Position numbers and translations under genes: made by a program. The notes beneath the pieces were generated by a model that searched no databases, had not been told where the DNA came from, and worked only from the letters and a program-made list of their open reading frames with translations. Positions 108 to 15,773 of a DNA stretch of 64,000 nucleotides are shown one piece after another (position 1 is the stretch's first letter; each line of letters opens with the position of its first letter). Source of the stretch: an uncultured Faecalibacterium sp. Its GTDB lineage: Bacteria; Bacillota; Clostridia; Oscillospirales; Ruminococcaceae. The DNA is taken from the NCBI GenBank assembly GCA_934501115.1, contig CAKSTO010000001.1:2022-66021 (forward strand), read 5' to 3'.

Positions 108-229
108 CACCACTTCCTTACTTGATACATATTATTATAGCATTCTGGTGGATTCTTGTCGATACGTTTCGATTGGACTCTTTTTACATTTTAGAAGAGT
201 GTTTTTGGACAAGAGTACTAAAATTAACA

Positions 230-272
230 GCCGCCCAGCGACCTTACGGTCTTGCTGGGCGGCTTATTTTTT
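230..272. terminator. Intrinsic terminator hairpin (gccgcccagc...gctgggcggc followed by a T-run) at the 3' end of the HTH regulator gene
   Basis: A 10-bp perfect inverted repeat at 230-239/254-263 is followed by ttatttttt on the plus strand. It lies immediately downstream of the minus-strand HTH gene stop, so it may act in both directions. Confidence 0.45.
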
Positions 273-590
273 GCGTTTCCACAACAGATATTCTTCGTAG
301 CGGTGCATCTCGTTCTGTTCTTCTTCGGTCAGACGCTGGCGCTGCTTGCGGGCTTCGTCCGAGGGATCGATGTCGGTCAAGCCCAGAAGGTAGTCGGCGG
401 AGGTGCCGTAGAGCTTGCAGATGGCAATCAGCATCTCGTGGTTTGGGGAACTCTTTTCATGCTCCCAACTACGGATGGTAGAAGTTGCAACATTAAGGGC
501 TTTGGCGAGTTCTTCCTGTGTTTGGTTATTCCAATCTCGCAGGTCAGCTAATCGTGCTCCAATCATCCTTTTCCCGCCTTTCTTTGCCAT
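264..590 (-). CDS. XRE-family helix-turn-helix transcriptional regulator (Cro/C1-type); possible controller of the adjacent RM-like operon
   Basis: The 108-aa ORF contains QTQEELAKALNVATSTIRSWE, a typical HTH_XRE motif. It is transcribed divergently from the methyltransferase gene. Confidence 0.8.
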   Translation of the reverse strand: MAKKGGKRMIGARLADLRDWNNQTQEELAKALNVATSTIRSWEHEKSSPNHEMLIAICKLYGTSADYLLGLTDIDPSDEARKQRQRLTEEEQNEMHRYEEYLLWKRKK

Positions 591-603
591 AAGTATAGAT
601 GCT

Positions 604-664
604 TCTTATCACTTTTGGCAAAAAGCGCCGAGAATCTTGTTAATTCACCTTGAAAGTGATAAGA
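604..664. promoter_or_regulatory. Pair of 12-bp perfect inverted repeats (tcttatcacttt / aaagtgataaga), a putative operator in the divergent intergenic region between the XRE regulator and the methyltransferase
   Basis: Read directly: 604-615 is the exact reverse complement of 653-664, with 37 bp between the arms, inside the AT-rich divergent promoter region. Confidence 0.35.
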
Positions 665-743
665 TACTTATTAGTATAGGGCGGAAGCGCTAAGAACATT
701 ATCACTTCCGCCGCAACGCTAAGGCAAAGCGAGGGAATCCCCG

Positions 744-2750
744 TTGGAACAACTGATCGACTTTCACGCACCGGAAGTACAGGCGGTGCTTGAGACCCTT
801 TTAAAAGACCGCTCCACCGGTAAAAACATCATCTGGGCAACCGACCCGCCGGAGGAACTGCAAACGGTAATGTACGAGCCGGTGACGGATAGATCCCAGA
901 TCAATACCCAGCAGCTCGGGCTGACCCACTACGAGGTAGTGCTGCCCCGGATGATGAAGCAGACCGACACCCAGCAGCAGCGCACCCGCAAAAAAGGCGA
1001 AGTATTCTCGCCCGCATGGGTCTGCAACAAAATGAACAACGCACTGGACGCCGACTGGTTCGGTGCGCTGGGGGCAGGGGAGAGCGCCGGGCAGTTCACG
1101 GTGGAGCTGCCCCAAGGCTGGCAGACAGTGGAAACGCCGGTGCAGTTTCCGGTTTGCAAGGGCAGGACCCCGGCATGGGTGCAGTATGTGCAGAGCCGCC
1201 GCTTGGAGGTGACCTGCGGCGAAGCCCCCTTTCTGGCGTCCCGGTACGATGCCGCCACCGGCGAGATGATCCCGGTAGCCCGGCGCATTGGTATTCTGGA
1301 CCGCAAGCTGCGGGTGGTAAGCGAGAACGCCGTCACGGAGGAAGAATGGCTCAAGTTTGCCACCCATGCGGTGCAGTCCACCTACGGCTACGAGTATCAG
1401 GGCGATAATTTGTTGCTGGCACGGGTCAACCTTCTGCTGACCTATGCAGAGCATCTGCAAGCCCGCTGGCAGCGCAAACCCACAAAAGAAGAGTTACAGC
1501 CCATCGCCACCATCATCAGTTGGAACCTGTGGCAAATGGACGGTTTGCACCTCTCTGTGCCCGGCGGCAAGCCTCAGCCGGAGGCAGAACAGCTTGATCT
1601 CTTTTCCATGTTCGGGGCGGCAGAGCCGCAGCCGCCCACGGTATCCTGTAAAGTGAAAAACTGGCGCAAGGGCAGCCATGGAACCGCCCAGAACTTTGAA
1701 ACCATTCAGGAAGGGAGTACCAGCATGAAGTTTGATTATATCATCGGAAACCCGCCGTATCAAAGTATAAACGACCAAAATCATAGACAAAGCCCTGTGT
1801 ATGATAAGTTTATGGAGGAGATATTCAAGACAGGGCGATGTATTGAACTTATTACGCCGGCTCGATTCTTGTTCAATGCAGGTCAAACTCCAAAAGAATG
1901 GAATGAAAAGATGCTGAACGACGAAAACTTTTCGGTTTTGGAATATTATCCAGATAGTTCGAAAGTTTTTCGAGATGTTGAGATTAAAGGCGGTGTTGCA
2001 ATAACGATTCGGAACGAAAAGATAAATTATGGCAAGATTGGATTCTTTACGATTTATGATGATTTGCGACGAATAGTTAGAAAGGTAAAAGACAGTAGAT
2101 TTGTGCCGCTGTCCAATTATGCATACCCAAAGAGCACATATGGATTAGACGTAAAACTATATATTGACCATCCTGAACTGAAAAGCAGGCTGACAAAAGG
2201 TAATCAGAGCATTATTGATGCTAATATTTTTGAAAAAATGCCTGAAATATTTAAGGATGATACTCCGGCAGTTGAAAATGACTATGTCAAAGTCTATGGA
2301 CGACAAAATAGTAAGCGTATTACTAAATGGATTTCCAAAGACTACATCAAAAAGAATGGACATCTGACCCAATATAAAGTTTTTGTGCCGGGAGCTAATG
2401 GTTCAGGTACGTTGGGCGAAACCCTTAGTTTGCCGGAAATAGGCACACCGGGTTCATGTCATACACAAACTTATATGAGCATAGGGGCCTTTGGCACGGA
2501 ACAAGAAGCGATAAATTGCGTCAAGTACATAAAAACAAAATTTTTAAGGGCACTTTTGGGATCTTTGAAAGTAACTCAAAATAATCCGAGAGATACATGG
2601 TCAAACATTCCATATCAAGACTTTACCGCCCATTCCGACATTGATTGGAGCAAGTCGGTGGCGGAAATTGACCGGCAGCTTTACCGCAAGTATGACCTGA
2701 CCGCTGACGAGATCGAATTTATCGAGACCCATGTAAAGGAGATGGCATAA
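744..2750 (+). CDS. Gamma-class N6-adenine DNA methyltransferase (NPPY motif; Eco57I/type IIG-like N6_Mtase family), probably including the target-recognition region
   Basis: The frame opens after the stop at 720-722. The likely TTG start at 744 has a GAGGGAA RBS. The N-terminal region has an FxP/W/KM motif-X-like segment (GEVFSPAWVCNKM), a G-rich loop (FGALGAGES) and the catalytic motif IV IIGNPPYQ (nt ~1746-1763). The 3' ~900 nt are strikingly AT-rich relative to the rest of the gene. Confidence 0.8.
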   Translation: MEQLIDFHAPEVQAVLETLLKDRSTGKNIIWATDPPEELQTVMYEPVTDRSQINTQQLGLTHYEVVLPRMMKQTDTQQQRTRKKGEVFSPAWVCNKMNNALDADWFGALGAGESAGQFTVELPQGWQTVETPVQFPVCKGRTPAWVQYVQSRRLEVTCGEAPFLASRYDAATGEMIPVARRIGILDRKLRVVSENAVTEEEWLKFATHAVQSTYGYEYQGDNLLLARVNLLLTYAEHLQARWQRKPTKEELQPIATIISWNLWQMDGLHLSVPGGKPQPEAEQLDLFSMFGAAEPQPPTVSCKVKNWRKGSHGTAQNFETIQEGSTSMKFDYIIGNPPYQSINDQNHRQSPVYDKFMEEIFKTGRCIELITPARFLFNAGQTPKEWNEKMLNDENFSVLEYYPDSSKVFRDVEIKGGVAITIRNEKINYGKIGFFTIYDDLRRIVRKVKDSRFVPLSNYAYPKSTYGLDVKLYIDHPELKSRLTKGNQSIIDANIFEKMPEIFKDDTPAVENDYVKVYGRQNSKRITKWISKDYIKKNGHLTQYKVFVPGANGSGTLGETLSLPEIGTPGSCHTQTYMSIGAFGTEQEAINCVKYIKTKFLRALLGSLKVTQNNPRDTWSNIPYQDFTAHSDIDWSKSVAEIDRQLYRKYDLTADEIEFIETHVKEMA

Positions 2751-5700
2751 TGGCTGGCATAACCCTGCGCACTGCCCGGCAGGTGGTGCCCATGATCTAC
2801 GCCTATACCACCCCGGAAATTGCCCGGCACAACGGCTGGACGAAGATCGGCTACACCGAGCAGTCGGTGGACAAACGCCTGAAACAGCAGACCCACACCG
2901 CCGATGTGCTGTTCCACGAGGAGTGGCGGGGCAATGCCGTCTACGATGACGGCAGCGGCGAGGTGTTCACCGACCACGATTTCCACGCCTACCTCCGCAA
3001 GCTGAACGTGGAGAACGACCGCAAAAACGAGTGGTTCCATCTGGATGGGCAGCAGTCCCGGCGGTATTTTCAGGATTTCCGCATGAACCGGGGCCGGGTG
3101 CAGCTGGATGCCGCCATCGCCTACACCCTGCGGGAAGAACAGGCAAGGGCTGTCCGCGACACCAAGACCTATTACCAGAGCCACCCCGGCGGAGAATACC
3201 TCTGGAACGCCAAGCCCCGCTTTGGCAAGACCCTTTCCGTCTACGACTTCTGCAAGCAGGTCGATGCACAGACGGTGCTCATCGTCACCAACCGCCCCGC
3301 CATCGCCAACAGCTGGTACAGCGACTATGTGCGCTTTCTGGGCAGGGAGTCCGGCTATCTGTTCGTCAGCCATGTGGATGCCCTTGCCGGGCAGCCCCAT
3401 GTGCTGGACGAGCAGGGCTATCTGGATGCCGCCGCACAGGGCGAGGAACTGTATAAGCGCATCGAGTTCGTCAGTTTGCAGGACATGAAAGGCTCCAAGT
3501 ATTTCGGCGGCGAGTACGACAAGCTGCGCCACCTGACCGAGCTGAACTGGGATGTGCTGGTCATCGACGAAGCCCACGAGGGCGTGGACACCTACAAGAC
3601 CGACCTTGCCTTTGACCGCATCCGCCGCAAGTTCACGCTGCACCTGTCCGGCACGCCCTTCAAGGCGCTGGCGAACGATAAGTTTGCCGGGGATGCCATC
3701 TTCAACTGGACCTACGCCGACGAGCAGGCCGCCAAGCGGAACTGGCAGGGCGCACCGGGGCAGCAGAACCCCTACGCAAACCTCCCCATGCTCAACCTCT
3801 ATACCTACCAGATGTCCGAGATCATCCGGGACGAGATTCGGCAGGGCGTGGAGATCGACGGCGAAACGCAGGAATTTGCCTTTGATCTGAACGAGTTCTT
3901 CAAGGTGAAGCCCAGCGGCAGCTTTGAGCACGACGCCGAGGTGGACCGCTTTCTGGATGCCATGACTACCCAGAACAAATTTCCGTTTTCCACCCCGGAA
4001 CTGCGTGCCGAGCTGAAGCACACCTTCTGGCTGCTGAACCGGGTGGACAGTGCCAGAGCACTGGCGAAAAAGCTGCAGGCGCACCCGGTGTTCCGGGACT
4101 ATGAGGTGATCCTTGCCGCCGGTGACGGCAAGCTGGACGACACGGACGAGAACCAGAAAAGCTTTGACCGGGTAAAAGCCGCCATCGCCCACCACGAAAA
4201 GACCATCACCCTGTCGGTGGGGCAGCTGACCACCGGTGTCACCATCCCGGAGTGGTCGGCGGTGCTGATGCTCTCCAACCTGAAAAGCCCGGCGCTGTAT
4301 ATGCAGGCGGCGTTCCGTGCCCAGAACCCCTGCCTTTTCCACGAAAACGGCACCTTCCGCCGCAAAGAGAACGCCTATGTGTTCGATTTTGACCCTGCCC
4401 GCACCCTGCTGATCTACGAGCAGTTCGCCAACGACCTTTCACAGGACACCGCCAGCGGCAAGGGCGACACCGAGGAGCGCAAGGCGCACATCCAGAATCT
4501 GCTCAACTTCTTCCCGGTCATCGGCGAGGACGAGGAAGGGGAGATGATCCCGCTGGATGCAGAAAAAGTCCTCAGCATCCCCCGGAAGATCAAGTCCAAG
4601 GAAGTGGTGCGGATGGGCTTCCAGAGCAACTTCCTGTTCCAGAACATTTCCAACGTGTTCAGTGCCCCGCAGGAGGTGCTGGACATTCTGCAAAACTTCC
4701 AGCCCATCAGCGAAGCCAAGGCAAAGCCCATCCAGATCACCCCGGAGACCGGCGCAGACCTCTCCCTGAACGACAAGGGCGAGGTGGATTTGGACGAGGG
4801 TTACGTCATCGGCAAGGCAGCGGATGTGTTCGGGGCGAAGATCTACGAAAGCACCCCGGCGCTGGACACCGCCCTGCAAGACCTGACCGATGCCCCGGCT
4901 CCTGCCAAAGAAGAGCATCTGGAACCCCTGAAAAAGAGCATCACCAAGGAGATCATCACCCCCATGGTGGAGCAGGCAAAGCAGGAGTATGGGCGGGACC
5001 TGAAGCTGTCCGACCAGAAGCGGTTTGAGAGCACCGCCAAAGCCAAGATGGACGTGGCGGTGAACAAGGTGGTGGACAACTACCGCATCGACCAGAGCCA
5101 GCTGGAGACCCAGCGCACCCAGCAGCTGCAAAGCTGCACCACCGCCCAGCAGCGCCAGCAGGTGAACCGGGAGTTTGACGCAAAGCAGCAGCAGAGCACC
5201 GCCGCCCTGATGGAGACGCTGCAATCCACCATCCAGCAGACGGCGCAGGAAATGCAGCAGACCATCGTGCGCACCGTGGAGACCAACCAGAAGGAGCAGG
5301 AGAAAAAGGGCTACGAGGACACCGTCCGTGACCATCTCCGGGGCTTTTCCCGCACCATCCCGTCCTTCCTCATGGCCTACGGCGACGAGACCGTGACGCT
5401 GGCAAATTTTGACCAAATCATCCCGGACAAGGTCTTTCAGGAGGTCACCAGCATCACGCTGGAACAGTTCCGCTTTTTGCGGGACGGCGGGCCGTACATC
5501 AACCAAGCCACCGGACAGGAGGAGCACTTTGCAGGCCACCTGTTCGACCCGGTGGTGTTTGACGATTCGGTGAAGGAATTCCTGAACCTGAAGGTCAGGC
5601 TGGCGGATTACTTTGACGAGAGTCGCACCGAGGATATCTTCGATTACATCCCGCCCCAGAAAACCAACCAGATCTTCACCCCCAAGTGGGTGGTGAAAAA

Positions 5701-6058
5701 GATGGTGGACTTGCTGGAACAGGAAAACCCCGGCTGCTTCGATGACCCCGGCAAGACCTTCCTGGACCCCTACATGAAGTCCGGCCTGTACATTACGGAA
5801 ATCGTCAAGCGCCTTTACCGCAGCGAGAAGATGCGGCAAGCCTTCCCGGACGATAACGCCCGGCTGGAACATATCTTTGCCAAGCAGGTCTATGGGCTTG
5901 CCCCCACCGAGATCATCTACCGCATTGCCATCAGCTACATTCTGGGCTTTGCAAAGGATCACGGCATCACCGCCCACCATATCCGTCAGGCCGATACGCT
6001 GGAATTTGCCAAGGCGGGCACCATGGAAAGGGAACTGGATAAGATTTTCAGAGACTGA
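2750..6058 (+). CDS. Large multidomain protein: N-terminal T5orf172/Mug113 (GIY-YIG-like nuclease) domain, SNF2/DEAH-type SF2 helicase, Gln-rich coiled region, and a C-terminal methyltransferase-like N-lobe (motif X and motif I-like, no NPPY)
   Basis: The ATG at 2750 overlaps the TAA of the upstream methyltransferase, which indicates translational coupling, and has an AAGGAG RBS. The N-terminus reads IYAYTTPEIARHNGWTKIGYTEQSVDKRLKQ...NEWFHL, a T5orf172-like pattern. Walker A is FGKTLSV, motif II is VLVIDEAHEG (nt ~3561-3580), the SNF2-type motif is LHLSGTPFKA, and motif VI is QAAFRAQNP. The C-terminus carries QIFTPKWVVKKMVDLL and FLDPYMKSGLYI, which resemble methyltransferase motifs X/I, but the protein ends before any NPPY. 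Confidence 0.8.
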   Translation: MAGITLRTARQVVPMIYAYTTPEIARHNGWTKIGYTEQSVDKRLKQQTHTADVLFHEEWRGNAVYDDGSGEVFTDHDFHAYLRKLNVENDRKNEWFHLDGQQSRRYFQDFRMNRGRVQLDAAIAYTLREEQARAVRDTKTYYQSHPGGEYLWNAKPRFGKTLSVYDFCKQVDAQTVLIVTNRPAIANSWYSDYVRFLGRESGYLFVSHVDALAGQPHVLDEQGYLDAAAQGEELYKRIEFVSLQDMKGSKYFGGEYDKLRHLTELNWDVLVIDEAHEGVDTYKTDLAFDRIRRKFTLHLSGTPFKALANDKFAGDAIFNWTYADEQAAKRNWQGAPGQQNPYANLPMLNLYTYQMSEIIRDEIRQGVEIDGETQEFAFDLNEFFKVKPSGSFEHDAEVDRFLDAMTTQNKFPFSTPELRAELKHTFWLLNRVDSARALAKKLQAHPVFRDYEVILAAGDGKLDDTDENQKSFDRVKAAIAHHEKTITLSVGQLTTGVTIPEWSAVLMLSNLKSPALYMQAAFRAQNPCLFHENGTFRRKENAYVFDFDPARTLLIYEQFANDLSQDTASGKGDTEERKAHIQNLLNFFPVIGEDEEGEMIPLDAEKVLSIPRKIKSKEVVRMGFQSNFLFQNISNVFSAPQEVLDILQNFQPISEAKAKPIQITPETGADLSLNDKGEVDLDEGYVIGKAADVFGAKIYESTPALDTALQDLTDAPAPAKEEHLEPLKKSITKEIITPMVEQAKQEYGRDLKLSDQKRFESTAKAKMDVAVNKVVDNYRIDQSQLETQRTQQLQSCTTAQQRQQVNREFDAKQQQSTAALMETLQSTIQQTAQEMQQTIVRTVETNQKEQEKKGYEDTVRDHLRGFSRTIPSFLMAYGDETVTLANFDQIIPDKVFQEVTSITLEQFRFLRDGGPYINQATGQEEHFAGHLFDPVVFDDSVKEFLNLKVRLADYFDESRTEDIFDYIPPQKTNQIFTPKWVVKKMVDLLEQENPGCFDDPGKTFLDPYMKSGLYITEIVKRLYRSEKMRQAFPDDNARLEHIFAKQVYGLAPTEIIYRIAISYILGFAKDHGITAHHIRQADTLEFAKAGTMERELDKIFRD

Positions 6059-6078
6059 GAAATAGAATACGGAAAACC

Positions 6079-6125
6079 AAAGGCGGCTGTCTGCATGGGT
6101 GCAGATGGCCGCCTTTGCGCTTTTT
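6079..6125 (+). terminator. Rho-independent terminator after the helicase/nuclease gene
   Basis: A perfect hairpin aaaggcggc...gccgccttt is followed by gcgcttttt. Confidence 0.6.
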
Positions 6126-6317
6126 ACGGAATGGAAGGGAGGAATAAGCAATTATTAGAAGGACGAGAATCGTAGGTTTAAAATTAGTTGGAGGTGAACG
6201 ATGCCCATCTGGGCAAGTACCAAAAATTTTCGGTAAATTCTGTGCAGCCTGCAGAAACTAATGGGTACTGTTGCAAAATAACGTAAAATGCGTTACAATA
6301 AAGTTGAGGTGATAACC

Positions 6318-6623
6318 ATGGAAAAAACGATGACGCTCAATCTTCGTGTCAACCCTACCGTCAAGCAGCAGGCCGAAGACGTGCTGAAGCAGCTCGGCAT
6401 CCCGATGGCAACTGCCATTGATATGTACCTGCGCCAGATTACCATGACTGGCGGCATTCCCTTCTCACTATCCCTTCCGAAGGCTCCTGCGGCTCTGAAT
6501 GCTGACACCATGACCGATGACCAACTCCATGCAGCCCTGCAGGTGGGCATCAAAGAGATTCAAAACGGTGATACCGTGGATGCCGCAAGCGCATTCGCAC
6601 AGTTCAGGGAACAGCACAGATGA
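6318..6623 (+). CDS. relB: RelB/DinJ-family type II antitoxin
   Basis: TMTLNLRVNPTVKQQAEDVLKQLGIPMATAIDMYLRQI is a typical DinJ/RelB ribbon-helix-helix antitoxin sequence. The start at 6318 is chosen from GAGGTGA with a 6-nt spacer. The stop overlaps the downstream toxin start (ATGA). Confidence 0.8.
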   Translation: MEKTMTLNLRVNPTVKQQAEDVLKQLGIPMATAIDMYLRQITMTGGIPFSLSLPKAPAALNADTMTDDQLHAALQVGIKEIQNGDTVDAASAFAQFREQHR

Positions 6624-6940
6624 AGCAATATGACGTGAAAATTTCTCGTGCAGCCCTCAGCGATATGGAGCAGATTTACAGCTACATTGCTGACCGTCTG
6701 CTGGAACCTGACACGGCCATGGGACAGTATAACCGCATCGCAGAAGCCATCCAATCGCTGGACATCCTGCCGGAACGCTGTGCGCTGGTTGAAAGTGAGC
6801 CGGAGCGCACCCAGGGGCTGCGGCAGATGCTGGTGGACAACTACTCGGTGTTCTACATCGTGGGCGAGGATACCGTGTCGGTGGCTCGTGTGCTGTACAG
6901 TGCATCTGACCTTGTGCGCCGCCTGCGGAGAATGAAGTGA
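6620..6940 (+). CDS. parE: ParE/RelE-family type II toxin
   Basis: The 106-aa protein has ParE-like features (YDVKISRAALSDMEQIYSYIADRL...). It shows 4-bp ATGA overlap coupling with the upstream antitoxin. Confidence 0.8.
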   Translation: MKQYDVKISRAALSDMEQIYSYIADRLLEPDTAMGQYNRIAEAIQSLDILPERCALVESEPERTQGLRQMLVDNYSVFYIVGEDTVSVARVLYSASDLVRRLRRMK

Positions 6941-6953
6941 AAGGGGTGTTTGC

Positions 6954-8435
6954 ATGACCGCCGTAATCTACGCCCGCTATTCATCGGACAACCAGCGTGA
7001 AGAATCCATCGAAGGGCAGATTCGGGAATGCACGGACTATGCGGAAAAGAACGGCATCACGGTCATCAAGCACTACATTGACCGTGCATTCTCTGCCAAA
7101 ACGGACAATCGCCCGGAGTTCCAGCAGATGATCAAAGACAGCGGCAAGAAGCTGTTTGATGTTGTTCTCGTCTGGAAATTTGACCGCTTTGCCCGGAATC
7201 GTTTTGATAGCGCAAACTATAAGATGATCCTGAAAAAGAACGGCGTCCATCTGATTTCCGTCATGGAACCCATTGCCGAGGGCTCACAGGGAATTCTGGT
7301 GGAAACGCTGCTGGAGGGTATGGCAGAATACTATTCCGCTGAGTTGTCCGAAAAGGTGATTCGTGGTCAGACCGAAAACGCCCTGAAGGGTAAGTGCACT
7401 GGTGGTACGGGAACCATCGGCTACAAAATCGACGAGGACAAGTTTTATCATCTTGACCCGCTGACCGCTCCGCTGGTGCTGGAAGCCTTTCAGCGGTATG
7501 ACAACGGCGATAAGATGGTGGAAATTGTAAACTTCCTCAACGACAAAGGCGTCCGCAATATGCTGGGCGGAAAAATGACCCACAGCAGCGTGAATACCAT
7601 GCTGAAGAACCGTCGGTACATTGGTGAACTGTCTTTCCGGGATATCGTTGTGCCGGATGCAATTCCGGTTATTGTTCCGAAAGACCTGTTTGACCGGGTG
7701 CAGAAGCGTCTGGATAAGAACAAGCGTGCCCCTGCCTGTGGCAAGGCAGACGAGGAATATCTGCTGACCACCAAGCTGTTCTGCGGCAAATGCGGTGCGC
7801 TGATGTTCGGCGAAAGCGGAACCAGTGCCACCGGGCGCACCTACTATTATTATAAATGCGCCAACGTCAAGCGGCGTAAGGGCTGCAACAAAAAGACCGT
7901 GCAGAAGGATTGGCTGGAAGATCTGGTTGTTCGGGAGACCATGAAGCTGATTCAGGACGATGCGGTGATCGATAAGATCGTTCAGCTGGTCATGGATGTC
8001 CAGAATCAGGAGAACACCACGATTCCGCTGCTGGAAAAGCAACTGCGAGAGGTTAACAAAAAGTTGGACAACCTGATGAAGGCGATCGAGGACGGCTTGT
8101 ACACCCGGACAACGAAAGAGCGTCTGGAAGCACTGGAGAACCAGAAAGATGAGCTGACTGCAAAAATTGCAGATGAAAAATTGAAGAAGCCTAGCTTCAA
8201 TGAGGATTTCATCCGATTCTGGCTGATGAAATTTAGAAAGTTCGATATTTCGCAGAAAAAGCAGCGGAAGGCGCTGATTGAAATTTTTGTAAATGCCATT
8301 TTTCTGTACGATGACCGGATGCTGATTACGTTCAATTACAAGGATGGCACCAAAACCGTCCGTTTTGAGGACACTTTGACCGCTGATGGGGTAGAAGGAA
8401 AAAGTTCGGATTTGTCCAGCTCTGCTGGACCATAA
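6954..8435 (+). mobile_element. Large serine recombinase (resolvase/invertase N-terminal catalytic domain, recombinase domain, zinc-ribbon/coiled-coil C-terminus)
   Basis: The N-terminus MTAVIYARYSSDNQ contains the catalytic Ser context of serine recombinases. The 493-aa size, the Cys cluster CGKCG...YYYYKC and the coiled-coil tail match large serine recombinases of integrative elements. Confidence 0.9.
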
Positions 8436-8474
8436 ATCCAACGGTTTCACGTTAGAAATCGTTGGATTTTTTTG
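8434..8474 (+). terminator. Rho-independent terminator directly after the recombinase stop
   Basis: A 10-bp perfect stem aaatccaacg/cgttggattt (8434-8443 / 8460-8469) is followed by a T-run. Confidence 0.6.
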
Positions 8475-8711
8475 TTTGTGTGCTGGTATTATTTGGATTT
8501 ACCCCTCCCCCGATAAAAGATGCTCCGCGAGCCGGACTGTGCGGAATTGTTGGATGTTGCTTGGAGGAGATCGTGCCGCTGGAATGGCAGGACTCTGGAA
8601 AACAAAATATTTTTTTTTTTGTGTGGAATGTGTAGAATATCGCTGAAAGAACTGTGCAGAATCCCCAACAAAAATTGCCCAAACGTGTTGATATTGAGAA
8701 AAATGCTTCAC

Positions 8712-8740
8712 AATCGTTTACAAAATGGTTACAAGATGGT
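8712..8740 (+). promoter_or_regulatory. Putative sigma-A promoter (TTTACA, 17 bp spacer, extended -10 TGgTATACT) upstream of the peptidase gene
   Basis: Read in the sequence cgtttacaaaatggttacaagatggtatactt. An 11-T homopolymer lies ~100 bp upstream at 8610-8620. Confidence 0.35.
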
Positions 8741-8796
8741 ATACTTTATAAATGTGAACGACAAGGATCTTTGGAAGCCGAAAGGAGCATCTACCC

Positions 8797-9816
8797 GTGA
8801 ATACTGTTGCACCGTCCCGAAAAAAGCTGCTGAGTTTTGTGCTGACACTGGTGTTCCTTTTCACCTGTCTGCCAGCGGCTTTGGCGGTGGATCTGAATGT
8901 GGATGCAGGCTTCTACTTCAAGCAGAGCCGCGGCGGTACCTGCACATTGGCCTCGGCCGCTATGATGCTGCGCCGCAGAGCTTATCTTGACGGTTTGACG
9001 GACTGGTCTGCCGTTACCGAAAACAGTGTTCGCTCTACGGCATGGGCCAACGGGCTTTCTCACAGCTTTACATACAAAGAAATGCAGGTAGGTTACGCAA
9101 CCCTTCCCTCCCGCAAACAGGAAAAGATCCAGACCCTCATCACGCTGCTGTCTCAGCATCCGGAGGGGATCGTGTTGTATGACCGCAGCCAGCCGCACGC
9201 TGTTCTGTTGACGGATTACACCAACGGCGTGTTCTACTGCTCCGACCCGGCGGGGAATATTTCCTCCGGGCGCATCCCGCTCACCAGTTCCAGCGTTTCG
9301 GTAAACGGTTCGTCCTGCTACTGGTACGTGACCTCTGACCATAACGCGGTGGCGACCTCTCCGGACAGTCTGCGTCTGGAAGGAATGAGCTATCCGGTTA
9401 ATGTGCAGACGGGCAAGGGTTTGGCTCTGGCCGGTACGGCCAACAGCCCGTTGGGAGCAACGCTGACCAATGTTCAGGTGGCGATTCTGGATGGAAATGA
9501 CCAGCTGGTGCAGAGCGCAGAGGCTGCCCCCAACGCGGTGAGCTTCTCGTTCAAGACGCTGGACAGCCAGATCCGCTTTGGTGAGCTGCCGGTAGGCAGC
9601 TATACCTACATGGTCGTGTTGACGGATTCCAACGACGAGAACCTCTGCTTTACAAGCGACTTTACGGTCTCGGACGGCTCCAACAGCAGTGCGACCTATT
9701 GGTCGGTGAAGGATACTGACGGTGCAAAGCTTCTGGACAGCGTTCAGGAAATCCAGACGACCTTTACCGATGCGGCAGAGGCTACTATGGACTGGCTTGA
9801 AAGCCTCTTCCACTAA
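8797..9816 (+). CDS. Secreted papain-like cysteine peptidase, C39-like (YvpB-type) domain with a C-terminal beta-rich domain
   Basis: It has a GTG start and a signal peptide (LLSFVLTLVFLFTCLPAALA). FKQSRGGTCTLASAAMMLRRRAY matches the Q...C(G)xAxxxMxL C39-like catalytic Cys region, and PHAVLLTDY is a candidate catalytic His. Confidence 0.6.
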   Translation: MNTVAPSRKKLLSFVLTLVFLFTCLPAALAVDLNVDAGFYFKQSRGGTCTLASAAMMLRRRAYLDGLTDWSAVTENSVRSTAWANGLSHSFTYKEMQVGYATLPSRKQEKIQTLITLLSQHPEGIVLYDRSQPHAVLLTDYTNGVFYCSDPAGNISSGRIPLTSSSVSVNGSSCYWYVTSDHNAVATSPDSLRLEGMSYPVNVQTGKGLALAGTANSPLGATLTNVQVAILDGNDQLVQSAEAAPNAVSFSFKTLDSQIRFGELPVGSYTYMVVLTDSNDENLCFTSDFTVSDGSNSSATYWSVKDTDGAKLLDSVQEIQTTFTDAAEATMDWLESLFH

Positions 9817-9893
9817 AATTCAAAACAAAAAGATGACCCGGGGCCTGCCGCTTCGGGTCATCTTTTTTGGTGTTATGGGTGTCAGAAGAACAT

Positions 9894-10805
9894 TCAATTG
9901 TCGGAGAAATAATCGCTGTCAACACGCTTGATCAAATATGCTTTTTGGGTAGAAACCCCAACGCCATATTCGATCATCAATTCGGTCAGGCGTTTGCCAT
10001 CCACCAGAATAATATGCTGCGCGTTGGCAAAGTCTCTGGCTTTGGGAGAAAACTTTGCGGTTGTGATAAAAAGACCTTTTTCTACTCTGGGTGGGCCCAT
10101 CATGGCTCCGGCAAATTTTTGCAGTTCTGGTTTGCCTATGGTAACATCCGGTTTCCAACGCTTGGCCTGAATGTAGATCAAATTAAAACCGAGCTGGTCT
10201 TCATGAATGATTCCATCGATTCCGTCGTCGCCGCTGTATTTGGTGACAAAGCCTTCGCCGTAGTTCATGGCTTTCATTAAATCGACGACTAGTTGTTCAA
10301 AAAATGCTGGAGTCTGGTTCAGAACCTCGGCCAGAAGATCGTCGGCCAACTGCTCATTGATAATGGCGTAGACCCGGTCAAATGTTTCCTGTGGTGTTTC
10401 TGGGGCTTCTGCCTGAACTTCGTCGGGCGCGAGTGTAATAGAATCGCTTCCGCTGTTTTTACGCCGATAAAAATCCAGAAATTCTGGGCACTTTTGAGCG
10501 AGAACGGTGTTGGTAATAGAAATGCCGCTTTCCAGCAGAGCCTTTCCAGAAGGTGTTATGAAAATGTGCCCGCGTTGGGGTGAATCTATCATCTGGGCTT
10601 TCAGCAGGTAGGTCTTAGCCCAGCCGACGCGACCGGAAAAAACACTGCTTTTAGGGTTGCTGGGCAATGTTTCGGCAAGGTCTTGCTCGGTCAGATGCAG
10701 AGTCGAAATGATAAAATCTCGAACTTCTTTCATAGAGTGCGTACCGCCGTCCTGCAAGGAAAGCAGTACCAGACGATAGAGTTCATTGTATTTTGGAATG
10801 GCCAT
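9894..10805 (-). CDS. mrr: Mrr-family type IV (modification-dependent) restriction endonuclease
   Basis: It has an N-terminal winged-helix region and a C-terminal Mrr_cat pattern, GDDGIDGIIHEDQLGFNLIYIQAKRW. The gene is clearly lower in GC than its flanks and has a GGGGGAAG RBS. Confidence 0.85.
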   Translation of the reverse strand: MAIPKYNELYRLVLLSLQDGGTHSMKEVRDFIISTLHLTEQDLAETLPSNPKSSVFSGRVGWAKTYLLKAQMIDSPQRGHIFITPSGKALLESGISITNTVLAQKCPEFLDFYRRKNSGSDSITLAPDEVQAEAPETPQETFDRVYAIINEQLADDLLAEVLNQTPAFFEQLVVDLMKAMNYGEGFVTKYSGDDGIDGIIHEDQLGFNLIYIQAKRWKPDVTIGKPELQKFAGAMMGPPRVEKGLFITTAKFSPKARDFANAQHIILVDGKRLTELMIEYGVGVSTQKAYLIKRVDSDYFSDN

Positions 10806-10837
10806 AAAACTTCCCCCAAATTGAAAAACTGAAAAAC

Positions 10838-11788
10838 TTATTTCAGTGTGCCGTCCAGTACCTGATTATAGTACCAGGGCTTTGGGGCGTGGAAGGTCTT
10901 GCCACTGAGAAACTCAAAGTCCGGCTGGCTGAAGTGTGGCATGGTGAGCTCCCAGGCGCACAGAGCCTGATACTTCAGCTTCAGCTCGCGATTGGCGGTG
11001 TTGTTGCCGTACTTACTGTCGCCCAGAATGGGACAGCCGATGCTTGCCATGTGGGCGCGGATCTGATGGGTGCGGCCGGTGATGAGCTTCACTTTCAGCA
11101 GAGCCAGACGGCCGGAGACGGCGATGGTCTCGTACCGGGTCTCCACTTCCTTGGCACCGGGCTGCTTGTCCTCCACGATCTTCACGATGCCGCGGTCGGC
11201 GTCCTTGAGCAGGTAGCCGCCCAAGGTGGCGTCCGGCGGGGTCGGGCGGCCAAAGGTGACGCAGAGGTAGGTCTTTTGCACCTCGCGGTTCTTGATGGCT
11301 GCAAGGAACAGCTCCTCGGCTTCCGGGGTCTTGGCGATGATCACAAGGCCGCTGGTGCCGGTGTCCAGCCGGTGGCACAGCGCCGGGGTATACAGGTCGT
11401 TTTCCTTGTATTCGCCCTGCTGGTTCAGGTAGAGCAGGGTGCGGTTCAGCAGCGTGTCGTCCTCCGGGCCGTCCACGGCAAGACCGGCGGGCTTGTTCAC
11501 AATGACGATCTGCGGGCAGTCATACACCACCTGTGCCGGGCCGCGGGCGTTCTTCCACGCAGGGCCTTCCACACGGCGGTCGGCGTCCAGCACGTCATCC
11601 AGAATGAACAGCTTGATCTCGTCACCGGCCATCACGCGGGTGGAAAGCGGCTGCTTTTTGCCGTTCAGCTTGATCTTGTTCTCCCGCAGCGCCTTGTTCA
11701 GGCGGCCCGGGTTCAGCGCTGGGTACTGCTGCATCAGATAGTTGTCCAGCCGGGTGGGGGCGAGACATTTTACCTTTAAGATTTTCAC
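10838..11788 (-). CDS. RluA-family 23S rRNA/tRNA pseudouridine synthase with an S4 domain
   Basis: It carries HRLDTGTSGLV and GRTHQIR, the hallmark RluA motifs. It has a GTG start. Confidence 0.85.
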   Translation of the reverse strand: MKILKVKCLAPTRLDNYLMQQYPALNPGRLNKALRENKIKLNGKKQPLSTRVMAGDEIKLFILDDVLDADRRVEGPAWKNARGPAQVVYDCPQIVIVNKPAGLAVDGPEDDTLLNRTLLYLNQQGEYKENDLYTPALCHRLDTGTSGLVIIAKTPEAEELFLAAIKNREVQKTYLCVTFGRPTPPDATLGGYLLKDADRGIVKIVEDKQPGAKEVETRYETIAVSGRLALLKVKLITGRTHQIRAHMASIGCPILGDSKYGNNTANRELKLKYQALCAWELTMPHFSQPDFEFLSGKTFHAPKPWYYNQVLDGTLK

Positions 11789-11970
11789 GGAAATTTTCCT
11801 CTCTATCTTGAAATAGAATGTGTCTTTGAATCGTTTTTATTGTAGCGGAACAAAAACCGCGCGTCAAGCGCAGAGAAAAGGAAATGTTGACTTTTCCGCG
11901 CGGGTGACGTATGATACCGAGACAGGTGCGGAAGACACCGCCCCGACAACAACAGAAAAAGGTATAGAAT

Positions 11971-12687
11971 ATGAAACTGAACAAAAAGGTGCTGGCCGTT
12001 ACGGCCATTCTGGCAGTGGGCATTCTGGCAGGCTGCGGCAGCAGCAACAGCACCGCAGGCAGCGTGGCAAGCGCACCGGCTTCCGGCGTGGAAAGCAGTG
12101 CGGCTTCGTCCGAAGCAGCCGGTGAGATGGGCGATGTGCTGCCCATCGACGCCGGGGATCTGAACGAGATCAAGACGGGTTCCTACAAGTTTGCAGCCAG
12201 CATCACCAAGGTGGCCGACGGCCAGGCGACCCTGAGCGTATACGGCTACGACAGCTACCTGCCTGAGGACATCGACGCCTTGCAGGAGGGCAGCGTGCTT
12301 CGGATCCACGACCAGGGCGACACCACCGTGACCAAGCTGACTGTGACCAGCATCGACAGGGATGCCGACAACGGCTATGTGACCATCAACGGCGGCATCG
12401 AAGCGGGCGGCGTGGAGCTGACGCTGGACCACGATGTGTACCGCACCGTGACCTTTGACGATTACCCCGTCTACTATGAGATGGGCGAGGTGACTCTGCC
12501 TCTGGCCGGGGGCGTGACCCTGAGCGACAGCTCGGCCGACCCGCAGGCTTCCGCCGTGGAGACGGACGGCGCCGATGCCGTGGCCGAGGCCGTCAACGCC
12601 GAGCCGGACGGCTGGATGCCCAACAACACCCTGGTCTTTACCGAGGATGGCACCATCAGCAGCATCGTCCGCATCTGGGTGCCGTAA
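11971..12687 (+). CDS. Lipoprotein of unknown function
   Basis: It has a signal peptide with a lipobox, LAGC, and a Ser/Ala-rich linker. No catalytic motifs were recognised. Confidence 0.6.
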   Translation: MKLNKKVLAVTAILAVGILAGCGSSNSTAGSVASAPASGVESSAASSEAAGEMGDVLPIDAGDLNEIKTGSYKFAASITKVADGQATLSVYGYDSYLPEDIDALQEGSVLRIHDQGDTTVTKLTVTSIDRDADNGYVTINGGIEAGGVELTLDHDVYRTVTFDDYPVYYEMGEVTLPLAGGVTLSDSSADPQASAVETDGADAVAEAVNAEPDGWMPNNTLVFTEDGTISSIVRIWVP

Positions 12688-12703
12688 ATTTTGCTCAAAA
12701 CCG

Positions 12704-13030
12704 TTGACAAATGCCCGGCTCATGCTATAATTTAGTTGTGCGCGAGAAGAACTGTGTGCTTTTCGCAGTGCGTAAAATTATGACAGATGGCAATGATGGG
12801 GTCAAAGATGCGTACCGCCGTCCAGAGAGAGTGCCCGCAGGCTGCAAGGCATTCCGGTCGGATGCATTTTGTGCCGCCCCGGAGCTTCCGGCGAAACAAG
12901 TCGGACGCAGCGCAGCGTTACCGCGCCGAAAGCGGCAGGGGACAAGCGATTTTATCCTTTGCAATTTGGGTGGTACCACGGAGCAGTTTTACACAGCCTC
13001 GTCCCTTTTGGGATGGGGCTGTTTTTGTTT
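12704..13030 (+). promoter_or_regulatory. Consensus promoter (TTGACA-16-TATAAT) followed by a T-box riboswitch leader (Ala specifier) regulating alaS
   Basis: TTGACA is at 12704-12709 and TATAAT at 12726-12731. The leader has an AGAGAGAG box at ~12826. A GCU codon lies in gcaggcugcaagg. The T-box sequence aatttgggtggtaccacgg is at 12963-12981. A terminator hairpin cagcctcgtccc...gggatggggctg with a T-run follows. The ORF-track frame 12711.. upstream of the true ATG at 13110 is leader, not coding. Confidence 0.75.
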
Positions 13031-13109
13031 TTGCGCCTGCCCGCCCCTCTGCCATAACATCATAAAAACTGACGTGCAAACGCCAAGGACAATCGAGGAG
13101 AGAAAACCT

Positions 13110-15773
13110 ATGCAATGGACCGGTTTGAATGAACTGCGTGAAAAGTACCTGAGCTTCTTTGAGAGCAAGGGCCACCTGCGTCTGGACAGCTTCCCGCTGG
13201 TGCCGAAGAACGACCCCAGCCTGCTGCTGATCAACAGCGGCATGGCCCCCATGAAAAAGTGGTTCCTGGCTCAGGAAGAGCCGCCCCGCCACCGTGTGAC
13301 CACCTGCCAGAAGTGCATCCGTACTCCGGATATCGAGCGCGTGGGCATCACTGCCCGCCACGGCACCTTCTTTGAGATGCTGGGCAACTTCTCCTTCCAG
13401 GATTACTTCAAGGAGGAGGTCATTCCCTGGGCATGGGAGTTCCTGACTTCTGACGAGTGGATGGCCATCCCGAAGGACCGCCTGCACATCTCTGTGTACG
13501 AAGAGGACGACGAGGCTTACGATATCTGGACCAAGAAGGTGGGCATCGCCCCCGACCACATGGTGCGTCTGGGCAAGGAAGACAACTTCTGGGAGCACGG
13601 CTCCGGCCCGTGCGGCCCCTGCTCCGAGATCTACTTTGACCGCGGCCCTGAGTACGGCTGCGGCAAGCCGACCTGCGGCGTGGGCTGCGACTGCGACCGC
13701 TATATGGAGATCTGGAACCTCGTGTTCAGCCAGTTCGATGCCGACGGCAAAGGCCACTACGAGCGTCTGGCGCGCCCCAACATCGATACCGGCATGGGTC
13801 TGGAGCGTCTGGCCTGCGTGATGCAGGGCGTGGGCAATCTGTTTGAGGTCGATACCGTCCAGAGCGTGCTGCACCATGTGGAGCACATCGCAAACAAGAC
13901 CTATGGCGAGGACGCCAAGAATGATATTTCCATCCGCGTCATCACCGACCACATCCGCAGCTGCACCTTTATGGTCTCGGACGGCATCCTGCCTTCCAAC
14001 GAGGGCCGCGGCTATGTGCTGCGCCGCCTGCTGCGCCGCGCTGCCCGCCATGGCCGTATGCTGGGCATCACCCGCCCGTTCCTGGTGGAGCTGGTGGAGA
14101 CTGTCATCCAGTCCAGCGAGACCGCATACCCCGAGCTGCGCGAGCATGATGCTTATATCAAGAAGGTCATCGGCACCGAGGAGGCAAACTTTGCCCGCAC
14201 CATTGATGCCGGTATGAACATCCTGAACAACATGATCGACGGTCTGGAAAAGGCGCATGAGCACCTGCTGAAGGGTCTGGACGTGTTCAAGCTGAACGAT
14301 ACCTTCGGCTTCCCGCTGGATCTGACCAAGGAGATCGCTGCAGAGCAGGGCATTGAGATCGACGAGGAAGGCTTCCACGCCGAAATGACCAAGCAGAAGG
14401 AGCGTGCCCGTGCGGAGCGCCTGAAGAAGAACATCTCCGGCTGGAGCGAGGATCTGTTCGGTGCGCTGGATGCAGAGCCTACCGTCTTTACCGGCTACGA
14501 GACCCTGAAGGACACCGGTGTCGTGGTCGCCCTGAGCGACGAGGAGACCCTGACCGACGCCATTGCGACCGATGAGGAAGCAAAGGACGGCGTGCTGGTG
14601 GTTCTGGATAAGACCCCCTTCTACGCTGAAATGGGCGGTCAGGCTGCCGACCACGGCGTGCTGAACAGTGCTGACTGCAGCCTGCGCGTGCTGGATGTGA
14701 AGAAGACCCCCAAGGGCTACTACGTCCACACCTGCGTGCTGGAAAGCGGCATCGTGAAGGTGGGCGACCACCTGACTGCACAGGTGGACAAGGAATACCG
14801 CATGGCCATTGCCCGCAACCACACCGCTACCCATCTGCTGCAGGCAGCTCTGCGCGAGGTGCTGGGCGATCATGTCCATCAGGCAGGCTCCTATCAGGAT
14901 GCAGAAATCACGCACTTCGACTTTACCCACTTCAGCGCTGTCACTCCCGAGGAGCTGGCGCGCGTGCAGAAGATCGTGAACGACAAGATCTATGAGTCCA
15001 TGAACGTCACCGTCCGGGAAATGCCCATTGAGGAAGCCAAGAAGCTGGGCGCAATGGCTCTGTTCGGCGAAAAGTACGGCAAGGTCGTGCGTGTTGTGGA
15101 TATCGAGGGCTGGTCTACTGAGTTCTGCGGCGGCACCCACGTGAAGAACACCGCCCAGATCGGCGGCTTCAAGATCGTGAGCGAGGCCTCCGTTGCTGCG
15201 GGCATCCGCCGCATCGAGGCTGTCACCGGCCGCAACCTGCTGATCCGTGCAAACCTGCAGGAGGCTATGCTGCATACCGTGGCAAACACCCTGAAGGCAA
15301 ACAACGTGACCGCTCTGCCCGTCCGTGCCGAGGCCGTGATGGCTGAGAACAAGGCTCTGGCCAAGGAGCTGGAAGAGATCAAGGCACAGGTCGCCGCTTC
15401 CAAGGTGACCAGCCTGTTCGACAATGCCGAGGAGATCGGCGGCGTGAAGATCGCTTCCGCGTACTTTACCGGCACTACCGGCGACACCCTGCGCGGCATG
15501 TGCGATACCATCCGTGACAAGGCTGTGAAGCCTGCTGTGGCGGTTCTGGTGGGCAAAGCTGAGGATAAGATCACTATGGCTGTCACTGTGAGCAAGCAGG
15601 CACAGGAAAAGGGTCTGAAGGCCGGTGCACTGGTCAAGGAGATCTCCGCGATCGCAGGCGGCAAGGGCGGCGGCAAGCCGGACTTTGCAATGGCCGGCCT
15701 GAAGGACGAGACTAAGATCGACGAGGCTCTGGCTGCCGTCGCTTCCATCGTCAAGAAGGCTCTGGGCGAATAA
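13110..15773 (+). CDS. alaS: Alanine--tRNA ligase
   Basis: MQWTGLNELREKYLSFFESKGHLRLDSFPLVPKNDPSLLLINSGM... is the canonical AlaRS N-terminus. The protein is ~887 aa and has the C-terminal DHHA1-like region. Confidence 0.95.
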   Translation: MQWTGLNELREKYLSFFESKGHLRLDSFPLVPKNDPSLLLINSGMAPMKKWFLAQEEPPRHRVTTCQKCIRTPDIERVGITARHGTFFEMLGNFSFQDYFKEEVIPWAWEFLTSDEWMAIPKDRLHISVYEEDDEAYDIWTKKVGIAPDHMVRLGKEDNFWEHGSGPCGPCSEIYFDRGPEYGCGKPTCGVGCDCDRYMEIWNLVFSQFDADGKGHYERLARPNIDTGMGLERLACVMQGVGNLFEVDTVQSVLHHVEHIANKTYGEDAKNDISIRVITDHIRSCTFMVSDGILPSNEGRGYVLRRLLRRAARHGRMLGITRPFLVELVETVIQSSETAYPELREHDAYIKKVIGTEEANFARTIDAGMNILNNMIDGLEKAHEHLLKGLDVFKLNDTFGFPLDLTKEIAAEQGIEIDEEGFHAEMTKQKERARAERLKKNISGWSEDLFGALDAEPTVFTGYETLKDTGVVVALSDEETLTDAIATDEEAKDGVLVVLDKTPFYAEMGGQAADHGVLNSADCSLRVLDVKKTPKGYYVHTCVLESGIVKVGDHLTAQVDKEYRMAIARNHTATHLLQAALREVLGDHVHQAGSYQDAEITHFDFTHFSAVTPEELARVQKIVNDKIYESMNVTVREMPIEEAKKLGAMALFGEKYGKVVRVVDIEGWSTEFCGGTHVKNTAQIGGFKIVSEASVAAGIRRIEAVTGRNLLIRANLQEAMLHTVANTLKANNVTALPVRAEAVMAENKALAKELEEIKAQVAASKVTSLFDNAEEIGGVKIASAYFTGTTGDTLRGMCDTIRDKAVKPAVAVLVGKAEDKITMAVTVSKQAQEKGLKAGALVKEISAIAGGKGGGKPDFAMAGLKDETKIDEALAAVASIVKKALGE

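Follow-up and report, generated by a model that had tools for sequence, protein, structure and literature searches.

A candidate two-subunit, ATP-dependent restriction-modification cassette in Faecalibacterium with a putatively divided methyltransferase fold

Type III restriction-modification (RM) systems (Mod/Res, EcoP15I) consist of a beta-class methyltransferase, Mod, with an internal target-recognition domain (TRD), and of Res, which carries a C-terminal PD-(D/E)xK nuclease. Type IIG and IIL enzymes (Eco57I, MmeI/DrdV) lack an ATPase motor and cleave at a fixed distance. M.AquI alpha/beta is a naturally split methyltransferase in which one fold is laid over two polypeptides, both of them dedicated methylase subunits. 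The Type ISP enzymes LlaGI and LlaBIII are built in the order nuclease, motor, coupler, methyltransferase and TRD (PMC3553950). The DnmA(YeeA)-YeeB-YeeC cluster, a conserved operon in defense islands, comprises a nuclease-free N6-adenine methylase, a superfamily 2 (SF2) helicase and a T5orf172 protein (PMC9973331). T5orf172 domains are members of the GIY-YIG superfamily; one T5orf172 protein, Gp88 of phage ICP1, has been described as an origin-directed nuclease (PMC8263062). Here we analyze a cassette of three genes, encoding an XRE regulator and two large proteins, P1 and P2, that lies at positions 226-6126 of a 64,000-nucleotide stretch of DNA from an uncultured Faecalibacterium sp. (contig CAKSTO010000001.1, positions 2,022 to 66,021); this whole stretch is referred to below as the window. 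No experimental description of the T5orf172-helicase-methyltransferase family to which it belongs was found in the literature searched, which included the topics of GIY-YIG/Type ISP enzymes and the Faecalibacterium methylome.

The reading that we favor, at a probability of about 0.55, is that P1 and P2 form a two-subunit, ATP-dependent translocating RM enzyme. The three open reading frames (ORFs) were verified at 264-590 (XRE, minus strand), 744-2750 (P1, plus strand) and 2750-6058 (P2, plus strand), bearing out the gene coordinates and the P1/P2 overlap given by an earlier, sequence-only reading of this DNA. P1 (668 amino acids, aa) initiates at TTG, and its stop codon TAA (2748-2750) shares one base with the ATG of P2 (2750-2752) in the sequence TAATG; a Shine-Dalgarno AAGGAG lies upstream of the P2 start. 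Domain profiles and the comparison of related cassettes agree with the earlier description of an atypical RM-like module. The two proteins are composed of the following parts:

744-1688, plus strand: A-lobe, P1 residues 1-315 (PADLOC model PDLC03390, E=6e-86)
1005-1034, plus strand: motif X of the A-lobe
1203-1235, plus strand: motif I of the A-lobe, LEVTCGEAPFL
1383-1400, plus strand: motif II of the A-lobe, YGYEYQ
1590-1604, plus strand: QLDLF peptide (P1 residues 283-287), in the loop that joins the core of the A-lobe to the CKVKNWR strand
1689-2747, plus strand: MC, P1 residues 316-668 (Pfam Eco57I; PADLOC PDLC03375; last 360 positions of PDLC03626)
1763-2523, plus strand: exchangeable specificity segment (TRD region) within MC, without DNA homology between close cassettes
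2750-6058, plus strand: P2, 1102 aa, coupled to P1 in translation by the TAATG overlap
2789-3064, plus strand: T5orf172/MUG113 nuclease domain of the GIY-YIG superfamily (Pfam; IYAY, KIGYT, R43, and NEWF with E94)
3110-4609, plus strand: SF2 ATPase/translocase core (Walker A GKT at 3224-3232; DEAH at 3566-3577; SGTP; QAAFRAQNP)
4610-5611, plus strand: linker or "coupler" (secondary structure in the AlphaFold2, AF2, model)
5612-6055, plus strand: B-lobe, the predicted N-half of an Eco57I-type fold (alignments, fusions, AF2)

The methyltransferase fold appears to be divided between the two proteins. MC, which contains FDYIIGNPPYQ (NPPY at 1749-1760), a TRD and a conserved C-terminal tail, is by its profile matches the C-half of a gamma-class N6-adenine methyltransferase plus TRD. 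Pfam Eco57I matches P1 residues 316-409 (E=4e-17) over model positions 63-171 only, the N-part not covered being encoded in P2; MmeI_Mtase matches the same half of P1 weakly (E=0.051). The B-lobe at the other end of the operon carries motifs X (FTPKWVVKKM), I (FLDPYMKSGLY), II (VYGLAPTE) and III (IRQADTLEF) and ends about 10 residues short of the point where NPPY comes in fused relatives. Pfam N6_Mtase matches it weakly (P2 residues 973-1098, E=0.039). In the AF2 model of P2 (mean predicted local distance difference test, pLDDT, 64.6) the B-lobe is folded as half a Rossmann domain, beta1-alphaA-beta2-alphaB-beta3, for which the block means of pLDDT are mostly 72-88. The lobe ranks with the most invariant parts of P2, its motif I and III residues included.

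The two halves are joined in single-chain relatives. Searched against 1.84 billion representative proteins, the B-lobe gave 893 clusters; the best 150 representatives were examined for fusions and include at least 13 full-length fused clusters (1300-1530 aa), in which T5orf172, helicase, linker and B-lobe are followed by NPPY 10-12 residues on and then by the TRD. For example, P0295 corresponds to P2(1-1089) plus P1(324-668), P0384 to P2(16-1102) plus P1(324-667) with the junction at residues 1100/1101, and P0310 to P2(6-1093) followed by almost the whole of P1 (71-667). MC is 42-45% identical to the C-terminal 350 residues of the fused enzymes. These Rosetta-stone fusions make it very probable that, as already proposed, the two proteins act as one enzyme.

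A different partition is found in a phage operon (PV036449, NatCom_35866; locus L001) of three genes, which encode a 260-aa N-lobe-only protein, a 506-aa Eco57I methylase and a 974-aa T5orf172-helicase without a B-lobe. The 260-aa protein, the phage version of A, matches MmeI_Mtase (E=4e-5) over the N-lobe only (positions 17-120). The methylase carries B and MC together, and Pfam Eco57I covers model positions 1-171 in it. P2 residues 955-1055 are 41% identical (E=6e-18) to methylase residues 6-101, spanning motifs X-I-II; P1 residues 328-668 align to methylase residues 182-505 (E=5e-17), and P1 residues 149-231 align weakly to the 260-aa protein. Furthermore, the B+MC profile is colinear, from motif X to NPPY, with a solved adenine methyltransferase (7lo5_A, 1029 aa), although the match is weak. 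This protein, presumably the Type IIL enzyme DrdV, also has no classical motif II acid.

Taken together, the colinear fusions, the phage methylase, the modelled fold and the invariance of the lobe indicate that B is the native N-half (X-I-II-III) of a fold whose C-half (NPPY and TRD) lies in P1, and no vestige. The sequence-only reading had correctly seen a methyltransferase-like lobe lacking NPPY at the C-terminus of P2, as the identity to the phage N-lobe and the half Rossmann fold confirm, but had called it vestigial. Its companion claim, that P1 is a complete methylase, keeps the Eco57I NPPY domain and is otherwise doubtful, residues 1-315 being module A, a free-standing gene in most relatives. 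A stand-alone MC starts at NPPY without an N-lobe and would therefore have to pair in trans.

Some side observations concern the relatives of P2. The phage version in L001 (A, B+MC, T5-helicase; 4839-15344) is flanked by an AAA_13 ATPase and an EVE+AAA_5 (McrB-like) protein, and the C-terminus of its helicase (GSIVIHKSFGEGTVTKL...), where the B-lobe would otherwise sit, resembles by eye a UvrD/PcrA Tudor-like domain. Other P2 relatives (P0260, 1381 aa; the L087 ORF, 1440 aa; L068, 1241 aa) have an extension of ~130-280 residues past the B-lobe, without NPPY; in P0260 it includes the stretch "DFTTEDTVWDFKVSK", which looks PD-(D/E)xK-like by eye.

The N-terminal T5orf172 domain proposed earlier for P2 scores above the curated Pfam cut-offs. 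Residues 16-105 match T5orf172 (E=2e-5, 25.4 bits, cut-off 20) and MUG113 (E=6e-6, 27.1 bits, cut-off 22.3), and Y17, Y19, G34, Y35, R43 and E94 are invariant in 29 homologues; the Pfam search gave no Mrr match at the P2 N-terminus. The motor is matched by ResIII (residues 125-304, E=1e-9) and weakly by Helicase_C (E=0.087), and its Walker A, DEAH, SGTP and motif VI do not vary among P2 homologues. The nuclease, Walker A, DEAH and B-lobe motifs remain invariant down to 65% identity. Of the DEAH/SNF2 ATPase originally assigned, the DEAH/ResIII part stands, but the label SNF2 is not specific: SNF2-rel_dom reaches E=0.05 only, and the top Foldseek matches are SWI2/SNF2 cores at low TM-scores, with RIG-I, RadD and XPB alongside and HsdR at rank 50. 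On the model, Foldseek places the motor with dsDNA-translocase-type SF2 enzymes. The Gln-rich coiled segment, also recognized before, takes the form of long helices in the AF2 model (residues 725-877; 4922-5380), and the coupler holds in addition a conserved helical domain at residues ~860-954. The coiled part is the least conserved region of P2, whereas residues 841-960 are conserved. A very common 991-aa form of P2 (P0035 and relatives, L005-L008), 93-99% identical elsewhere, is without residues ~580-657, between the ATPase core and the linker; alternative C-termini were considered for these variants and rejected in favor of this internal deletion.

The recognition part of P1 is exchanged between cassettes. 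In the comparison with L005, L012 and L014, unrelated DNA takes the place of the MC/TRD segment in cassettes that are otherwise 84-97% identical. With L005, P2 and the A-lobe are 90-100% identical, MC/TRD is 37-62% identical and the ends are identical; conservation resumes on both sides of the swapped segment, in the A-lobe and in the last ~28 codons of P1. The alignments suggest that TRD alleles are exchanged by homologous recombination, a swap such as one would expect where RM systems vary in specificity.

The A-lobe, almost entirely covered by PDLC03390 (labelled "MTase_II"), is by its motifs a second, very divergent methyltransferase N-lobe-like module. It has no Pfam match at E<=10, its profile retrieved nothing useful from the PDB, and hhalign, given the profiles of the two lobes A and B, aligned motif X alone. 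Invariant residues are found in motif I (E155-x-TCGEAP162) and motif II (Y214-G215-x-E217); B has Ala where A keeps the motif II acid. Every locus that could be scored in full has an A gene next to the system. The fused T5-Hel-B-MC enzymes are no exception, an A gene lying immediately upstream of them.

The QLDLF peptide of the A-lobe fits the bacterial beta-clamp-binding consensus, QL[S/D]LF / QxxLF (PMC12309361). A Qxx[LIM]F motif is strict in 50 of 76 A-lobes, the others having near-variants at the same position; Q283 is invariant, F287 is at least 90% conserved, and acidic residues follow. The peptide is present at the equivalent position in the A-lobes of L010-L091, L092, L093, L001 and L011 and is missing in all four single-chain B-A-MC enzymes. 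Its absence where A is embedded in the helicase chain favors a docking peptide for P2 over a clamp tether, and QLDLF may thus be a handle by which P2 docks.

In the favored scheme, translational coupling would supply P1 and P2 in fixed proportion. P2 would contribute the T5orf172 nuclease, the SF2 DNA motor, the helical coupler and the S-adenosylmethionine (AdoMet)-side lobe B; P1 would contribute the NPPY catalytic half and the TRD, placed behind module A. When the two assemble, B and MC would rebuild one methyltransferase domain. The TRD would read an asymmetric site and host sites would be methylated on adenine; unmethylated sites on incoming DNA would license ATP-driven translocation and then T5orf172 cleavage, as in Type ISP. 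In the window lineage, an XRE protein acting on three TTATCACTT boxes would time expression. The combination predicted here is an ATP-dependent RM system with a GIY-YIG-superfamily nuclease, a fold split over two subunits and an additional N-lobe protein. If true, it would represent a new ATP-dependent restriction architecture, in which a GIY-YIG-superfamily nuclease is set on a Type ISP-like body, and a natural methyltransferase fold divided between modification and restriction subunits, a division that would physically tie host protection to assembly of the restriction complex.

Of the described systems, Type ISP is matched by the fused relatives in the order of an N-terminal nuclease, SF2 motor, coupler, gamma N6-adenine methyltransferase and C-terminal TRD. 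In the cassette likewise a ResIII/DEAH core and the B-lobe are followed by NPPY and TRD, whether in P1 or in the fused relatives, and a swappable TRD sits on a constant body. The nuclease, however, is of the T5orf172/GIY-YIG type instead of Mrr/PD-(D/E)xK, and the window has two chains where Type ISP has one polypeptide, although single-chain relatives exist. The cassette is also split inside the methyltransferase fold and has the extra N-lobe protein A. The domain order had been called non-classical; this holds for the split form, but the fused relatives have the Type ISP order (PMC3553950).

With Type III the cassette shares two coupled genes, methylase first and then a ResIII-type helicase-nuclease, and, we assume, the need of the Res-like chain for the methylase subunit in target recognition. 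It differs in the gamma motif order X-I-II-III-IV with a C-terminal TRD, in the N-terminal T5orf172 nuclease and in the part of the methylase fold that is placed on the "Res" chain. The DnmA-YeeB-YeeC cluster has the same component set of methylase, SF2 helicase and T5orf172; by its description it is set apart by a separate helicase and T5orf172 protein, which are one chain here, and probably also by an intact MmeI-like methylase instead of a split Eco57I-type enzyme plus module A. The Type IIG/IIL enzymes have in common with MC the Eco57I Pfam domain with NPPY and presumably include the best solved match to B+MC, 7lo5_A, but the cassette has an SF2 ATPase and its proteins are divided. In contrast to M.AquI, one methylase half is the C-terminus of a helicase-nuclease, so that the methylase and the restriction complex would be assembled in one and the same event. 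The class 1 DISARM genes drmA, drmB (DUF1998) and drmC (PLD) are not found within 226-6126, which holds XRE, P1 and P2 only. No well-characterized restriction family was matched, in agreement with the sequence-only reading: the literature searched holds no such architecture, and the REBASE-derived PADLOC models match pieces only, labelled "MTase_II" (Type II MTase) and "REase_MTase_IIG" (Type IIG), with PDLC03626 reaching 135-199 bits on a 1359-position model. NCBIfam gave no family match for the system, the label of the XRE protein aside.

Several points weigh against a two-subunit translocating enzyme. P1 and P2, searched as single sequences against the PDB, match no chain at E<=1, solved Type ISP, I and III enzymes included, and the AF2 model of P1 (pLDDT 36) is unusable. 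A plain Type ISP-like scheme does not explain A, which is present in all fully scorable loci. In B. subtilis, the analogous dnmA-yeeB-yeeC cluster gave no restriction or phage protection in the reported assays (PMC9973331). Searched as profiles, P1 and P2 matched only UvrB, XPD and RapA in the PDB, all weakly. The constant presence of A would be accounted for if P1 (A+MC) were a self-sufficient methyltransferase and B a non-catalytic lobe that docks the helicase-nuclease onto P1. This arrangement, the one put forward by the sequence-only reading, is the chief competing model, if an unlikely one. A lies directly N-terminal to MC in 20 of the 60 complete genome loci and in the B-A-MC single chains, and its motif II acid (E217) is the one that B has replaced. 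Yet 7lo5_A is also without this acid, so that its absence is no argument against activity; B-MC fusions with canonical spacing are common, and B-MC is an ordinary Eco57I domain in the phage relative. In A-MC, motif III and NPPY are ~75 residues apart, with an extra loop and strand, and B is under very strong purifying selection, motifs I and III included. The two N-lobes might instead alternate in an obligate trans-assembly, where MC with A would be a methylation-only, host-protecting form, MC with B (P2) a restriction-competent form, and N-lobe exchange the switch; Qxx[LI]F would then be the P2 docking handle, or a beta-clamp motif coupling maintenance methylation to the replisome. We regard such a switch as distinctly doubtful.

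The null result in B. subtilis, together with decayed copies of the cassette (a 226-aa P1 remnant in L013 and several frameshifted loci), would also fit an epigenetic or orphan methylase accompanied by a relic, non-restricting helicase-nuclease, as was concluded for DnmA-YeeB-YeeC. This is improbable in view of the nuclease and motor catalytic motifs, invariant across phyla, the horizontal spread into at least 587 species genomes and the exchange of TRD alleles; moreover, Vibrio homologues of the DnmA cluster are reported to affect phage sensitivity (PMC9973331). Non-cleaving, methylation-dependent interference of the BREX or DISARM kind, or an anti-restriction or DNA-protection device of a mobile element, is highly improbable. 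P1 does have an Eco57I-type domain, and that Pfam family is also annotated on BREX PglX and DISARM-type methylases (PMC9881135); the cassette is also often found at prophage edges and on viral contigs. However, no DrmA/B/C, PglZ or BrxC/L genes occur within 226-6126, PADLOC gave no BREX or DISARM matches, and P2 has a conserved nuclease domain. The translocating RM enzyme remains the reading we prefer.

Full-length P2 relatives (58-72% identity) occur in at least 587 species genomes of the Bacillota, Actinomycetota, Spirochaetota, Alphaproteobacteria, Melainabacteria and methanogenic archaea, a distribution that points to horizontal spread; one 90% cluster alone has 21,636 member sequences. 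The T5-Hel-Link-B chain is kept in 80 of 80 genome loci. Half of these (40) encode A (310-340 aa) and MC (340-365 aa, starting at NPPY) separately, 20 have A+MC fused as in the window, and 20 are truncated or frameshifted, leaving 60 complete. On viral contigs the corresponding numbers are 14, 11 and 9 (25 complete). Among Bacillota and Actinomycetota of the human gut the family is very common. Its commonness and its reach over phyla to methanogens make it a likely widespread barrier to phage, gene transfer and the genetic manipulation of commensals such as Faecalibacterium, and one that automated annotation is likely to miss. Near-full-length P2 relatives with 58-60% identity were seen in gut methanogens (Methanocorpusculum, Methanomethylophilaceae; L057, L079, L087), which implies that the cassette passed between domains recently. 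Deleted or frameshifted P1/MC genes stand next to an intact P2 at L013 (7321-7998, the 226-aa remnant), L017, L031, L035, L085 and L089; these could be decaying copies or assembly errors.

The cassette is a real, self-contained, mobile unit. Its ends are marked by two features:

226-263, minus strand: left cassette boundary and hairpin downstream of the XRE gene (alignment of related loci)
6078-6126, plus strand: intrinsic terminator (18-bp stem, 6078-6117, then a T-run) and right cassette boundary

DNA homology with seven close relatives starts at window position 226-229, with unrelated sequence to the left of 226 and a terminator-like hairpin at 243-229 on the minus strand, beyond the XRE gene. 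The homology ends at 6116-6126, coinciding with the terminator, and is interrupted once, from about 1763-1996 to about 2523-2734. Being confined to 226-6126, it defines the unit as XRE-P1-P2. The settings of the relatives differ and include an island adjacent to groES/groEL with HicAB, a KAP NTPase or a Tn916-type Xis/Int element, and a prophage edge beside SIR2 and DUF87 (HerA-like). Defense genes (SIR2+DUF87, HicAB, KAP NTPase, McrBC, Mrr) are among the neighbors, which together with the mobility speaks for the favored reading, and the cassette lies frequently at prophage edges and on viral contigs. The P2 of the window is 99% identical to that of Faecalibacterium prausnitzii ATCC 27768. An exact sequence look-up of the window P2 gave no record, and a plasmid collection gave no match to the cassette.

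The regulator and the region between the divergent genes comprise two further features:

264-590, minus strand: XRE/HTH_3 regulator, 108 aa, divergent (Pfam HTH_3, E=4e-12; NCBIfam RstR/DicA-like)
591-743, no strand assigned: divergent promoter region with candidate operators, three TTATCACTT boxes

The XRE regulator was identified correctly from the start, as its HTH_3 match attests. The boxes lie at 606-614, 699-707 and, inverted, 654-662; they form a 12-nt perfect inverted repeat plus a third copy, overlap promoter-like sites at 621-592 (minus strand) and 650-677 (plus strand), and are kept in L012. They are probably the operators of the XRE protein. With its gene and three boxes present, but a similar XRE upstream in just 12 of the 65 loci that have enough upstream sequence, the protein is probably a C-protein-like controller, specific to this lineage; a role as a core part of the system was rejected on the same count.

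To the right of the cassette lie the following genes:

6288-6940: RelB/ParE (Pfam)
6954-8435: large serine recombinase (Pfam)
8797-9816: 339-aa protein without a Pfam match, with a hydrophobic stretch at the N-terminus
9894-10805, minus strand: Mrr Type IV enzyme (Pfam)

The toxin-antitoxin pair, recombinase and Mrr that the sequence-only reading had placed in one island with the system are present, but they lie outside the conserved cassette and are neighbors only; none of the genes at 6288-10805 is common to the related cassette loci. Truncation by the downstream recombinase element was considered as the origin of the NPPY-less lobe of P2 and rejected, the recombinase being outside the shared cassette and both the ~1100-aa length and the lobe being kept in 80 of 80 genome loci. 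The GC content of the window is ~0.50-0.53 and climbs to ~0.60 past roughly 12 kb.

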